DNA of 62,225 nucleotides from an uncultured Fibrobacteraceae bacterium (lineage in GTDB: Bacteria; Krumholzibacteriota; Krumholzibacteriia; LZORAL124-64-63). Of this stretch, positions 16,054-24,191 are shown piece after piece. Below the pieces are notes generated by a model, which made no database searches, was not told the DNA's origin, and was given only the letters and a program-made list of their open reading frames with translations. A program made the position numbers and the translations under genes. The DNA lies in the NCBI GenBank assembly GCA_964549735.1, contig CAZJWO010000004.1, forward strand, positions 1 through 62,225. Reading direction: 5' to 3'. Each line of letters begins with the position of its first letter. Within the stretch, counting starts at the first letter, position 1.

Positions 16054-17124
16054 TTGGAAGCCAGGAAGCCGCGCGTCTTCATCGTCGATGACGAGAACCA
16101 GGATCTGCGGATCCACGTGGCGACGCTCAGGTCGCAGGGTTACGACATCATCACGGCGAGCAACGGCGAGGAAGCCCTGCTGCGCGTCGAGGCCGACGTG
16201 CCCGATCTGTTCCTGATCGCGGCCAAGATGAGAGCGATGGACGGGTTCACGCTCTGCGAGCGCCTCAAGGAAGACGCCCGCCTCATCAACGTGCCGGTCA
16301 TCTTCGTGACGGCCGACCCCTCGAGCGAGGACATCGACCGCGGCTACGCGGCCGGCGGCGTCGACTACATCAGCAAGCCTTGCCACCTGAGCGAATTCCT
16401 GGCGCGCGTGCGCGCCCACATCCGCCTGTATCAGCTCCTGCAGGAGGTCGCGCGCCTCGAGGACATCGCCATCGACGCGAACCCGCTGACCCACTTGCCG
16501 GGCAACAACACGATCATGACGGTCATCCAGGACGCCATCGACCGCAAGCTGGACATGACCGTGCTCTACGCGGATCTCGACAACTTCAAGGCCTACAACG
16601 ACTACTACGGATTCAGCGACGGCGACGACCTGCTGCTGTTCACGGCCGAGACGCTGCAGACCGCGATCCGCACCGTCTGCGGCGGCGACGCGTTCCTCGG
16701 CCACATCGGCGGCGACGACTTCGTGCTGATGGTCAAGTCCGAGCAGGTGCAGGACCTAGCCGCCGAGATCATCGAGCAGTTCGACGCCGGCGCGCCGGCC
16801 TTCTACCGCGACGAGGACGCCAAGCGGGGCTATATCGAGACCAAGGACCGCGCCGAGAGGGTCGTCCGCTATCCGCTGGCGAGCCTGAGCATGGGCGGCG
16901 TGCGGCTCTACGCCCATAGCTTCCAGCGCTATCTCGAGGTGGCCAGCGTCTGCGCCGAGGTCAAGCACATGGCCAAGGCCATTGCGGGCAGCAACCTCTT
17001 CATGGATCGGCGCGGCGAGCATTGCGCCGGCCAGCCCGCGGCCGGAGCCGGCGACGCGGAGGCGTCGGACGGCGATGCCGTGGGCGCCGCGTCAGGTCCG
17101 GCCGGCGGTCGGACCGAGAACTGA
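16054..17124 (+). CDS. Receiver-GGDEF diguanylate cyclase
   Basis: REC 'VFIVDDE...VIFVTA...DYISKP'; GGDEF 'NPLTHLPGN', 'YADLDNFKAYNDYYG', 'GHIGGDDF'. Confidence 0.9.
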   Translation: MEARKPRVFIVDDENQDLRIHVATLRSQGYDIITASNGEEALLRVEADVPDLFLIAAKMRAMDGFTLCERLKEDARLINVPVIFVTADPSSEDIDRGYAAGGVDYISKPCHLSEFLARVRAHIRLYQLLQEVARLEDIAIDANPLTHLPGNNTIMTVIQDAIDRKLDMTVLYADLDNFKAYNDYYGFSDGDDLLLFTAETLQTAIRTVCGGDAFLGHIGGDDFVLMVKSEQVQDLAAEIIEQFDAGAPAFYRDEDAKRGYIETKDRAERVVRYPLASLSMGGVRLYAHSFQRYLEVASVCAEVKHMAKAIAGSNLFMDRRGEHCAGQPAAGAGDAEASDGDAVGAASGPAGGRTEN

Positions 17125-18549
17125 CTCCAGCGCCGCGAGGATGCCGCGACCGAGATCGGTCAGCGACGGATCACGCGCCCCCATGACCAGCACGAGATCG
17201 CCGGGCCGCGCCGCGGCAGCCACCAGCGGCGGCAGGTCGTCGCGTCGCGGACAGAACCTGGCGTCGCGCCCGCGGGCGGCGAGGTCGGCCGCGAGGTCGG
17301 CGCTCGAGAGGTCGCGCGTGACCGTGCCGCCGGCGTAGTAGATCTCCGGCAGCCAGAGCACGTCGGTCGGCCGCAGCGCGGCGGCGAGCGCGGCGACCAG
17401 GTCGGCGCGCAGGAACCGCGTGGGGCCGAAGCCGTGCGGCTGGAAGATCGCGAGCACGCGGCCCGGGCCGTCGCCGAGACGCGCGCGGCCGGTCGCCAGA
17501 GCGGCGGCGAGCTTGTCGGGGTTGTGGGCGAAGTCGTCGATGACCTCGACGCCGCCGGCCGTGCCCAGCGAGACGAACCGCCGCTCGACGCCGCGGAAGC
17601 CGGCCAGCGGCCGCGCCATGTCGGCCGCGCCGAGGCCCGCCTGGCGGCAGACCGCGATCGCGGCCAGGGCGTTGAGCGCGGTGTGGCGGCCGGGCCAGGG
17701 CACGGTGAAACGCACGCCGTCGACCGTGAAGCTCACGTCGCGGGCCGACAGCTGCAGATCCTGCGCGCGCACGTCGGCCCGCGCGCCGAAGCCGAACGTC
17801 ACGGCGCCGGGACGCAGGAAATCGAGGTTGGCGTCCTCGCCCACGACGAGCGGTCCCTGGCAGTTCAGCCGGAACTCCGTGAACATCGCGGCCACGTCGG
17901 CGATCTCCTTGTGGTCGCGCGCCAGGTTCAGGACGACGCCGGCCCAGGGCTGATACCGCACGACCGTGCCGTCGCTCTCGTCGGCCTCGATGACGAGCAG
18001 CTCGCCGCCGGCGCCATCTCGCCCGGTTGCGCTCCGCGCATCGCCGCCCCAGGCGTTGCCGAGCAGGCCGCGCTCCTGCAGCGCGATGAGCCCAGCGCCG
18101 GTCAGCAGGCGCGGGTCGCGGCCGCAGCCGTGCAGGATCGTCCAGATCATGGCCGTGGTCGTCGACTTGCCGCTGGTGCCGGTCACCGCGATGGTCCGGT
18201 GGCGCGCCACGTAGACGGCGAGCAGGTCGGAGCGGTGCTGGATCGGCAGGCCCAACGCGCGAGCCCGCGCCAGATCGGCGATCTGGGCCTCGACGGCGGT
18301 GCTGCAGATGACCGCGGCGCAGCCCGCGTCGAGGACCGCGCCGTCCTGGGGCACGATCTCGACGCCGGCCGCCACGAGGGCCGCGCGGATCTGCGGATGC
18401 TGCCCGCGATCCAGCGCGCGGTCGCTGCCGGTCGCGCGGCCGCCGCGGCCGACGTGGAACTGCGCGAGCGCGCTCATGCCGCTGCCGGCGACGCCGACGA
18501 AGTGCAACCAGGGGCGGATTTCGGCCGGAGGCACGGGCGCTCCCGTCAC
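17092..18549 (-). CDS. Mur ligase family protein, MurC-like paralog
   Basis: 'HFVGVAGSGMSALA', 'GTSGKSTTT', 'EADESDG', 'NLARDH', 'GVERRF', 'DDFAHNP', 'FQPH'; GTG start overlaps the GNAT stop. Confidence 0.88.
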   Translation of the reverse strand: MTGAPVPPAEIRPWLHFVGVAGSGMSALAQFHVGRGGRATGSDRALDRGQHPQIRAALVAAGVEIVPQDGAVLDAGCAAVICSTAVEAQIADLARARALGLPIQHRSDLLAVYVARHRTIAVTGTSGKSTTTAMIWTILHGCGRDPRLLTGAGLIALQERGLLGNAWGGDARSATGRDGAGGELLVIEADESDGTVVRYQPWAGVVLNLARDHKEIADVAAMFTEFRLNCQGPLVVGEDANLDFLRPGAVTFGFGARADVRAQDLQLSARDVSFTVDGVRFTVPWPGRHTALNALAAIAVCRQAGLGAADMARPLAGFRGVERRFVSLGTAGGVEVIDDFAHNPDKLAAALATGRARLGDGPGRVLAIFQPHGFGPTRFLRADLVAALAAALRPTDVLWLPEIYYAGGTVTRDLSSADLAADLAARGRDARFCPRRDDLPPLVAAAARPGDLVLVMGARDPSLTDLGRGILAALESVLGPTAGRT

Positions 18550-22854: not shown

Positions 22855-24191
22855 CGCAGGACCTCCCCGGCCGGTTGCGGATCGGGGTAGCGATGGACCT
22901 CGCCGGTGTAGCTGCGCAGCAGGAGGTCGTCGCCGTCGCGGCCCGCCAGGTAATCGGGCTGCAGGGGGATCTTGCCGCCGCCGCCGGGGGCGTCGATGAC
23001 GTAGGTGGGCACGGCGTAGCCGGTCGTGTGGCCGCGCAGGCCGCGGATGATCTCCAGGCCGCGCGCCACCGTCGTGCGGAAGTGCGACGAGCCCGAGATG
23101 GGGTCGCACTGGTAGAGGTAGTAGGGGCGCACGCGCATCATCAGCAGGCGGTGCATGAGATCGCGCATGACCGCCACGTCGTCGTTGACGCCCTTCAAGA
23201 GCACGGTCTGCGAGCCGAGCGGGATGCCGGCGTCGGCCAGACGGCGGCAAGCGATCACGGCCTCGGGGGTGCACTCGTCGGGGTGCGTGAAATGGATGCT
23301 CAGGAACAGCGGATGGTGCTTGCGCAGCATCTTGACGAGCTGCGGCGTGATGCGCTGGGGCAGCACGGCCGGCACCTTGGTTCCGATGCGCAGGAACTGG
23401 ATGTGCGGGATCTTGCGCAGTTCGCTCAGGACCCAGTCCAGCTTGTCGTCGGCCAGGGTCAACGGATCGCCGCCGGACAGCAGCACGTCGCGCACCTCGG
23501 TGTGCTCGCGCAGGTAGTCGAGTCCGGCCTGCAGGCGCGTCTTGTTCGGCAGCAATTCGCCCTGCCCGACCACGCGCGACCGCGTGCAATAGCGGCAGAA
23601 CGTCGAGCAGAAGTCGTGCACCAGGAAGAGGACGCGGTCCGGATAGCGGTGCACCAGGCCCTCGACCGGGCTGTGGCTATCCTCGCCCAGCGGATCGTCG
23701 GCCTCGCCGTAGGTGCGCAGGAACTCGAAATGATCCGGGATCACCGTGCGCCGCAGCGCCTGCTGCGGATCGTGCGGATCGACGAGGCTCATGTAGTACG
23801 GCGTGACCGCGAACGGCAGCAGCGACCCGCCCTGGCAGAGCGCGTTGCGCTCGGCGTCTCCCAGCACGCACATCGACTCGATCTGCGCGAGTTCGCGGAT
23901 ACGATGGCGCAGTTGCCAGCGCCAGTCGTGCCATTCGGCGTCCGCGACGTGCGGATAATGCGCGCGCCGGAAGAGGCGGGTGCGCTCGCCCTGACGGGGC
24001 GGCTTGCTGGCGAGGAAATACGAGGGGAAAGAAGCAGCGGCAGGCGGAATGGGATCGAGGGCTGCCTCTGACGGAGGCACCGCGTGCCCGACCGGAGGCT
24101 CGTCGGACTGATCTGACGCGACCTCCTTTTGTTGGAGCTTGCAGGCGGGGGCTGTCACGTGCTTCCGCACAGCCTGGGGAACCAAGGGCAT
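22851..24191 (-). CDS. kamA: KamA family radical SAM lysine 2,3-aminomutase
   Basis: 'HRYPDRVL', 'CSTFCRYCTR' (CxxxCxxC), 'LLSGGDPL', 'YQCD', 'VIDAPGGGGKIP' (PLP lysine). Confidence 0.88.
   Translation of the reverse strand: MPLVPQAVRKHVTAPACKLQQKEVASDQSDEPPVGHAVPPSEAALDPIPPAAASFPSYFLASKPPRQGERTRLFRRAHYPHVADAEWHDWRWQLRHRIRELAQIESMCVLGDAERNALCQGGSLLPFAVTPYYMSLVDPHDPQQALRRTVIPDHFEFLRTYGEADDPLGEDSHSPVEGLVHRYPDRVLFLVHDFCSTFCRYCTRSRVVGQGELLPNKTRLQAGLDYLREHTEVRDVLLSGGDPLTLADDKLDWVLSELRKIPHIQFLRIGTKVPAVLPQRITPQLVKMLRKHHPLFLSIHFTHPDECTPEAVIACRRLADAGIPLGSQTVLLKGVNDDVAVMRDLMHRLLMMRVRPYYLYQCDPISGSSHFRTTVARGLEIIRGLRGHTTGYAVPTYVIDAPGGGGKIPLQPDYLAGRDGDDLLLRSYTGEVHRYPDPQPAGEVLR

Follow-up and report, generated by a model that had tools for sequence, protein, structure and literature searches.

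In methanogens and some bacteria, β-lysine is the committed intermediate of the AblA/AblB route, in which a KamA/AblA-type lysine 2,3-aminomutase (LAM) and one or more GNAT acetyltransferases are encoded in one operon. The end product, Nε-acetyl-β-lysine, is well known as an osmolyte of archaea and of some bacteria (PMC9337991; PMC3543383). Here we analyzed a 62,225-nucleotide stretch of DNA (hereafter the window; contig CAZJWO010000004.1, G+C content about 70%) from an uncultured Fibrobacteraceae bacterium that is placed among the Krumholzibacteriota in the GTDB taxonomy. A block of six minus-strand genes in this window joins an AblA-like mutase gene, kamA, to genes for two ATP-grasp ligases (AG1 and AG2), a fusion of a GNAT with a histone deacetylase-type amidohydrolase (GH), a small GNAT and a Mur ligase (mur). 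An initial sequence-only reading had regarded the six genes as one pathway. Our analyses favor a different explanation, which we consider the probable one, namely that two functionally separate modules, a five-gene β-lysine cassette and a ykuD–mur recycling pair, have merged into one transcription unit. More tentatively, we propose that the cassette makes an undescribed β-lysine metabolite, an N-acetylated β-lysyl amide or peptide and possibly an oligomer, which would be common in anaerobes of many phyla.

Other described systems resemble parts of the block. In pyrrolysine synthesis, the product of the radical-SAM lysine mutase PylB, which is not a KamA-family enzyme, is joined by the ATP-grasp enzyme PylC to the amine of a second amino acid. 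In the synthesis of the osmolyte N-acetylglutaminylglutamine amide (NAGGN), a GNAT and an ATP-grasp ligase, fused in Ngg, make an N-acetylated dipeptide solute. The similarity of the cassette to PylB/PylC and Ngg is an analogy of logic only, since their sequences can be related no more closely than at the superfamily level. For the ykuD–mur pair, the closest parallel lies in peptidoglycan recycling. In Acinetobacter baumannii, tetrapeptides are first trimmed in the cytoplasm by the L,D-carboxypeptidase ElsL, a signal-less protein with a single YkuD domain, and are then ligated by Mpl to UDP-N-acetylmuramic acid (UDP-MurNAc) (PMC8649774).

The genes kamA, AG1, AG2, GH and GNAT form a large, coherent, self-contained and widespread module. 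The survey of this cassette was anchored on GH, its most distinctive protein, whose full-length relatives (50–83% identity) are abundant across many phyla; one genome per species was scanned, with flanks of up to 10 kb, yielding 80 loci. The complete cassette is present in 45 of them, in seven gene orders, most often kamA-AG1-AG2-GH-GNAT (25 loci) or kamA-AG1-AG2-GNAT-GH (13 loci), while nine loci contain a partial cassette, mostly cut by the end of a contig, and GH stands alone in 26. Complete cassettes span the Desulfobacterota, Planctomycetota, Dehalococcoidia, Proteobacteria and Bacteroidota, and the GH-anchored records include Desulfobacterales, Desulfuromonadaceae, Desulfovibrionales, Syntrophales, Planctomycetales, Pirellulaceae, Dehalococcoidales, Woeseia, Nitrococcus, Methyloceanibacter, Kiloniellaceae and Bacteroidales, among others. 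Furthermore, three kinds of fusion join the members: the small GNAT is attached to the C-terminus of GH in a 750-residue protein (P0110), a GNAT commonly follows AG2 in proteins of about 500–545 residues (P0364, P0370, P0390), and AG1 is fused to AG2 in proteins of about 640–730 residues, among them P0361, the N-terminal half of which is 58% identical to the AG1 of the window. An exhaustive search with AG2 returned 1051 clusters at 50% identity (E ≤ 1e-30). The co-conservation of the five genes and their fusions agree well with the earlier suggestion of a pathway larger than AblAB. Apart from one small Cys-rich gene, an all-against-all clustering of six-frame open reading frames (ORFs) from 87 loci revealed no further conserved neighbors, whether transporters, regulators or hydrolases. 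We found no curated family, NCBIfam equivalog, Rfam model or published description of the five-gene cassette, and papers on Desulfovibrio alaskensis contained nothing on these genes; in databases, members of the cassette are annotated as D-alanine–D-alanine ligase, histone deacetylase or acetoin utilization protein (AcuC).

The identity of the first enzyme is the best defined by its residues. The kamA gene (22851–24191, minus strand) encodes a protein of 446 residues with Radical_SAM and LAM_C domains, which aligns over 360 residues with the LAM of Clostridium subterminale (PDB 2A5H, E 3e-133). In that enzyme, Asp293 and Asp330 bind the ε-ammonium group of lysine, and Arg134 binds its carboxylate (PDB 2A5H numbering). 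Here, the Asp of the YQCD motif corresponds to Asp293 and that of VIDAPGGGGK to Asp330, Arg134 is also retained, the CSTFCRYC motif supplies Cys125, Cys129 and Cys132 of the CxxxCxxC signature, and GGGGK provides Lys337, the pyridoxal phosphate lysine. All seven residues are invariant in the 44 cassette-linked KamA orthologues compared. By contrast, Asp293 and Asp330 are replaced in glutamate 2,3-aminomutase. The protein passes the KamA subfamily model TIGR00238 (338 bits against a cut-off of 199), falls narrowly below the AblA equivalog TIGR03820 (482.7 bits against 525.4), and lies far below the models for glutamate aminomutase, arginine aminomutase and EpmB. Since every lysine-specific residue of LAM is retained, β-lysine is the expected product, as had been proposed from the two aspartates. 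By its specificity residues KamA is likely a lysine 2,3-aminomutase, and β-lysine the likely intermediate of the cassette.

A small gene of the CxxCxxCC type, encoding about 170 residues, lies between kamA and AG1 in six surveyed loci (L014 6921–7967, L017 26–658, L022 1425–2045, L025 7089–7634, L040 7425–7985 and L047 7300–7923), and is absent from the window. Its product scores 22.3 bits against PF03692, a zinc/iron-chelating domain, just below the cut-off of 23, and could be an electron donor or an accessory protein for the radical-SAM mutase.

The two ATP-grasp enzymes, AG1 (21796–22854, 352 residues) and the more divergent AG2 (20820–21845, 341 residues), both on the minus strand, share with the Ddl and Van ligases their fold, the Pfam C-terminal domain (Dala_Dala_lig_C, PF07478) and all of the ATP/Mg and acyl-phosphate catalytic residues. 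Lys144, Lys215, Arg255, Asp257, Glu270 and Asn272 of Escherichia coli DdlB (1IOV/2DLN) are invariant in 52 AG1 and 53 AG2 sequences, and therefore both proteins should be active ligases. Although AG1 and AG2 match Ddl and Van models only, they reach just 143.7 and 90.9 bits, respectively, on the best of these, the NCBIfam Ddl model NF002378, which has a cut-off of 243, and score lower on the others. They also differ from the Ddl and Van enzymes in the replacement of the D-Ala2 pocket, and in occurring as a pair or a fusion outside the dcw (mur/fts) cluster, with kamA and GNAT genes as neighbors. The pocket residues Tyr216/Ser281/Leu282 are Glu/Ser/Asp in AG1 (Tyr216 to Glu in 37 of 52 sequences, Leu282 to Asp in 48 of 52) and Trp/Ala/Gly in AG2 (Tyr216 to Trp in 53 of 53). 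Glu15, which binds the donor amino group in Ddl, has an equivalent that is invariant in AG1 (52/52) and retained in just 26 of the 53 AG2 sequences. From these residues, the donor of AG1 would have its amino group free and the acceptor would be positively charged, whereas the donor of AG2 may be N-blocked, which would fit the frequent AG2–GNAT fusion. The possibility that the two are ordinary D-Ala–D-Ala ligases, which the sequence-only reading had set against its own proposal, is rejected together with a housekeeping Ddl role on the curated cut-offs, the pocket residues and the gene context.

GH (19052–20815, minus strand, 587 residues) matches the Hist_deacetyl domain (PF00850) with 248 bits. 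Its C-terminal 310 residues align end to end with the acetylpolyamine amidohydrolases (APAHs) 9GKZ, 6PHR and 3Q9B, the closest solved structures, with E-values from 3e-72 (9GKZ) to 4e-65. His401, His402, Asp436, His438, Asp525 and Tyr564, representing the His-His pair, the Asp-His-Asp set and the Tyr of GGY, are invariant in the alignment of GH proteins (A1), their metal-binding and catalytic roles being assigned by homology. Unlike the APAHs, GH has an additional N-terminal GNAT region of about 235 residues and sometimes a second, C-terminal GNAT, and is usually encoded within a kamA cassette. The N-terminal region is unrecognized by Pfam models; an AlphaFold2 model with a predicted local distance difference test score of 91.4 adopts a GNAT fold, and its RGIGGA acetyl-CoA motif is invariant in the same alignment. 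A fold search with this domain returned generic GNAT matches only (GCN5, AAC(6'), EctA and others), with no pointer to the substrate. The small GNAT (18546–19055, minus strand, 169 residues) matches GNAT Pfam families and is an orthologue of PDB 2R7H (Dde_3044 of D. alaskensis/desulfuricans G20, E 3e-36), a structural-genomics entry labeled 'putative D-alanine N-acetyltransferase'. Neither it nor GH matches the AblB acetyltransferase model at E ≤ 0.01.

On the basis of these assignments, we propose that the self-contained biosynthetic cassette (24191–18546) would operate as follows. KamA would convert L-lysine into β-lysine, and one of the GNATs would acetylate β-lysine at one of its amines. 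AG1 and AG2, probably acting as a heterodimer, would then form one or two ATP-dependent amide bonds between β-lysine and a further amine or amino acid, a step suggested by their intact active sites, altered pockets and fusions. Finally, as its similarity to the APAHs suggests, the amidohydrolase domain of GH would hydrolyze a terminal N-acetyl-aminoalkyl group, the kind of small-molecule group on which such deacetylases act, and would thereby deprotect an amine or regulate the turnover of the pool. Our best guess for the product is a small N-acetylated β-lysine amide or peptide, serving as a compatible solute or as a nitrogen-rich cytoplasmic metabolite. A β-lysine-derived solute or peptide had been offered as the second choice of the sequence-only reading, and it still explains the five-gene core best. 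Such a cassette would extend the AblA/AblB route, and thus the known β-lysine/GNAT solute pathway, by ligases and a deacetylase, and knowledge of its product might show it to be more than an extension.

A simpler explanation would be an elaborated AblAB system, in which the GNAT domain of GH or the small GNAT synthesizes Nε-acetyl-β-lysine, the amidohydrolase degrades it, and the ATP-grasp proteins are regulatory or unrelated. The closeness of KamA to the AblA equivalog is consistent with this explanation, as is the fact that its product would be an osmolyte already established in nature. However, the mutase scores just under the AblA cut-off, an AblB-type GNAT is missing, and two ATP-grasp ligases and an APAH domain are added. 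AG1 and AG2 are conserved like kamA, keep all of their catalytic residues, and are fused to each other as well as to GNATs, which argues for catalytic steps within the same pathway. Given the extra ligases and the amidohydrolase domain, Nε-acetyl-β-lysine is probably either not the product or not the sole one, and we regard this explanation as doubtful.

The presence of two distinct and often fused ligase sites also recalls the two-site logic of cyanophycin synthetase, and suggests another possibility, a cyanophycin-like, nitrogen-rich polyamide of β-lysine on which the two sites would alternate, while acetylation and deacetylation would cap and uncap the chain ends. β-Lysine, with two amines and one carboxylate, would be a suitable monomer, and the acceptor pocket of AG1 is acidic. 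However, known Ddl-type enzymes yield dipeptides, and the ORF clustering of the 87 loci revealed no conserved depolymerase or granule-associated gene nearby. A polymer therefore seems quite unlikely.

The remaining gene of the block, mur (17092–18534, minus strand, with an alternative start at 18549), encodes a protein of 480 residues with all three Mur ligase domains. Its partner in our reading is ykuD (24472–24987, minus strand), an ORF that lies 280 nucleotides upstream of kamA and had been overlooked earlier. The Mur protein scores 283.9 bits against the murC model TIGR01082 (cut-off 335.1) and 108.4 bits against the mpl model TIGR01081 (cut-off 388.7). On the MurC equivalog, a MurC from a dcw context reaches 504 bits, whereas ligases linked to LD-carboxypeptidases score 267–326. 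Furthermore, mur is located outside the dcw cluster, between the GNAT gene and a convergent GGDEF regulator gene, and a housekeeping MurC is rejected on the curated cut-off and this gene context. With 108 bits against a cut-off of 389, membership in the Mpl family is not claimed either, and we refer only to an Mpl-like way of working.

The closest relatives of this Mur protein are 55–82% identical, belong to Krumholzibacteria where they are named, and in several cases possess an N-terminal YkuD domain. In the fusions P0231, P0175 and P0240, this domain aligns with the ykuD ORF of the window. The product of this ORF (171 residues) consists of a single YkuD domain (PF03734, 71.7 bits), its HG...SHGCVRL catalytic motif aligns with solved L,D-transpeptidases, and its N-terminus, judged by eye, has no hydrophobic, signal-like segment. 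In other genomes YkuD is fused to a ligase of the cytoplasm, which would place it in the cytoplasm too. The published criteria for ElsL-type proteins are a single YkuD domain of 105–200 residues, the catalytic His/Cys motif, and the absence of a signal peptide and a peptidoglycan-binding domain (PMC8649774); judged by these criteria, the YkuD protein of the window is a candidate ElsL-type enzyme.

A metagenome scan anchored on Mur provided 83 loci (L088–L170), which fall into three groups. YkuD is encoded directly upstream of, or fused to, the ligase in 13 of them. In another 22, the ligase belongs to a sister clade with 37–41% identity to the Mur of the window, and the adjacent gene encodes an S66 (LdcA-type) LD-carboxypeptidase, as at L116 8070–9005, L130 8074–8937 and L127 10326–11201. 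The third group consists of true MurC genes in dcw clusters. That MurC-like ligases are coupled, depending on the lineage, to one or the other of two unrelated families of L,D-carboxypeptidases suggests a function in the recycling of stem peptides. We therefore propose that ykuD and mur are an older gene pair, in which the apparently signal-less YkuD protein would trim recycled stem peptides as an L,D-carboxypeptidase and the MurC-like ligase, in the manner of Mpl, would join them to UDP-MurNAc again. By analogy, the pair is probably a stem-peptide recycling system that works like ElsL or LdcA with Mpl. It resembles these systems in the genomic coupling, by overlap, fusion or adjacency, of a MurC/Mpl-type ligase with a putative cytoplasmic L,D-carboxypeptidase of the YkuD or S66 type, and it differs from them in that the ligase is nearer to MurC, under both curated cut-offs, and in that the pair in the window is split by the cassette. 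On the larger scale, the MurC-like ligases that lie outside dcw clusters and are linked to LD-carboxypeptidases may represent an Mpl-independent family of peptide-recycling ligases.

How the two modules are joined in the window is apparent from the layout of the block. All six ORFs and their named Pfam domains are present, tightly packed from 24191 to 17092, as the sequence-only reading had described; two of the starts are revised. AG2 best starts at TTG 21845, preceded by GGAGGTG, rather than at 21851, and Mur more likely starts at GTG 18534, after GGGAG. Gene calling performed separately on the source contig gives 341 and 480 residues, in agreement with both revisions. The GH start, TTG 20815 (MFRIR...), is fixed by the alignment of homologues. 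As read from the sequence, kamA and AG1 overlap in an ATGA (22851/22854) that is preceded by GGAGG, AG1 and AG2 overlap by 50–56 nucleotides, depending on the AG2 start, AG2 and GH are separated by four nucleotides, and GH and the GNAT share an ATGA at 19052/19055. At the GNAT/Mur junction there is either a GTGA overlap at 18549 or, with the start at 18534, a gap of 11 nucleotides. Shine-Dalgarno-like GGAGG motifs precede every start in the block. A scan of 16800–25200 detected no terminator-like site between the six genes, and its sole sigma-70-like site, TTGACA-16-TACATT at 24400–24373 on the minus strand, is located upstream of kamA, where the chance expectation is 0.2 sites for the region. 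With this arrangement, mur and the cassette are probably transcribed together in the window.

Together with this promoter-like site, a conserved, GC-rich 5' leader of kamA occupies 24192–24400 (minus strand). It shares about 80% nucleotide identity, unusually high for intergenic DNA, with the leaders of two related loci, L084 (6385–6594) and L086 (5905–6126). In the RNAalifold prediction for the three sequences, CACGCCGCCACCACGG, which directly follows the -10 box, forms a long-range helix with CCGTGGAGGTG, the Shine-Dalgarno sequence of kamA, and GC-rich internal hairpins are predicted as well; the covariation evidence from only three sequences is weak. The region is a candidate cis-regulatory leader. 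No Rfam riboswitch was detected at the gathering thresholds in the whole window and six cassette loci, or in a permissive scan of the kamA leader. Thus, no Na+, c-di-AMP or lysine riboswitch lends support to an osmolyte role.

The comparison of related loci provides insights into how the modules came together. In L089 and L090, the gene order is phosphotransbutyrylase (PTB)/butyrate kinase, ykuD overlapping mur, a convergent response regulator-GGDEF gene, a LiaF-like gene, an anti-sigma factor gene and an ECF sigma factor gene. These flanking genes recur in the window, L084 and L086, where, however, ykuD and mur are parted by the cassette; in L086, ykuD and mur are additionally separated by a C1 peptidase gene, and GH is lacking. 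The flanking genes shared with uninterrupted ykuD–mur loci indicate that the cassette sits inside a pre-existing ykuD–mur pair. The simplest history is an insertion of the cassette into this bicistron in one Krumholzibacteria-like subclade, although we infer the direction of the change. In the window, the response regulator-GGDEF gene (16054–17124, plus strand) converges on mur, with the 3' ends overlapping by 33 nucleotides, an arrangement kept in L084, L086, L089 and L090. On the other side of the block, the plus strand encodes a 778-residue fusion of a phosphate acetyl/butyryl-transferase with an acetate/butyrate kinase-family protein (25048–27384), followed by a second PTA_PTB gene (27276–28373), and this pair is kept beside ykuD in related genomes. 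Farther away, a plus-strand gene (33987–36077) encodes a VgrG-like protein with Phage_GPD, Phage_base_V and Gp5 C-terminal trimerization domains, a possible sign of a locus for type VI secretion or contractile injection.

These relationships bear directly on the leading proposal of the sequence-only reading, that the six genes constitute one pathway in which a β-lysine peptide is acetyl-protected and deprotected, and then coupled by the Mur protein to a UDP-sugar, yielding a non-canonical muropeptide. The close junction between the GNAT gene and mur, free of any terminator, is in line with that proposal, the linkage of mur to the cassette is shared by the window and its relatives L084 and L086, and YkuD enzymes and Mur ligases both work on stem peptides. 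However, a Mur, YkuD or S66 gene was found within up to 10 kb in none of the 80 GH-anchored loci, and a kamA cassette in none of the 83 Mur-anchored loci, where the Mur family is instead paired or fused with YkuD, or paired with S66 LD-carboxypeptidases, without any kamA. In one genome, both modules exist separately on a single 2.8-Mb contig, with a cassette (L085) about 510 kb from an intact ykuD–mur pair (L089), and even in L084 the GNAT–mur gap widens to 145 nucleotides. The survey that the sequence-only reading had called for has therefore a divided outcome: mur is unlinked in all 80 surveyed cassette loci, and linked only in a narrow lineage, where it is probably co-transcribed. In addition, the cassette is present in metagenome-assembled genomes (MAGs) of Dehalococcoidales, an order that includes the wall-less Dehalococcoides, which argues against a role of the cassette in the cell wall. 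The loading of the product into a non-canonical muropeptide is hence unlikely.

A use of kamA in the fermentation of lysine to butyrate, suggested by the PTA_PTB and Acetate_kinase-family genes at 25048–28373 and by the position of LAM as the first enzyme of clostridial lysine fermentation (PMC3994512), can be rejected, with hardly any probability left to it. The PTB and kinase genes belong to the ykuD–mur frame and flank this pair without the cassette too (L089, L090), the partners of kamA are biosynthetic ligases, and no β-lysine 5,6-aminomutase, kdd, kce or kal gene occurs in the cassette or among its conserved neighbors.

Several observations nevertheless weigh against our explanation of a β-lysine solute cassette merged with a recycling pair. 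By sequence, the Mur protein resembles MurC (284 bits) more than it does Mpl (108 bits). GH is detached from the cassette in places, being alone in 26 of the 80 loci, as in a Krumholzibacteriia MAG where it is located beside RimK and RimB-like genes (L001 10001–11740), and missing from the kamA-AG1-AG2-GNAT-mur block of L086, so that its function may extend beyond the cassette. Our proposals on where acetylation occurs, what is ligated and in which order the steps follow rest on a few pocket residues and on the fusions. Neither an osmotic-stress riboswitch (Rfam scans) nor a conserved transporter (ORF clustering of the 87 loci) accompanies the cassette, and its source habitats include freshwater as well as saline sites, which makes the osmolyte role a mere analogy. 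Finally, the close spacing of the GNAT gene and mur, with no terminator-like site between them, makes co-transcription probable and leaves room for a lineage-specific functional link between the modules. It is a possibility that the expression of the cassette is coupled to peptidoglycan-peptide recycling in the Krumholzibacteria-like lineage.

If our proposal is true, then the cassette would add a new class of β-amino-acid solute or storage compound, together with a new branch of specificity in the Ddl family. It could reveal a new solute in the anaerobes of sediments and bioreactors, and the identification of its product would correct thousands of annotations and define two new Ddl-family specificities. 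The orthology of the small GNAT with 2R7H places the cassette in the genetically tractable Desulfovibrio (Oleidesulfovibrio) alaskensis G20, for which transposon mutant libraries exist. The MurC-like ligases paired or fused with L,D-carboxypeptidases, in turn, suggest an Mpl-independent route of stem-peptide recycling outside the Proteobacteria.

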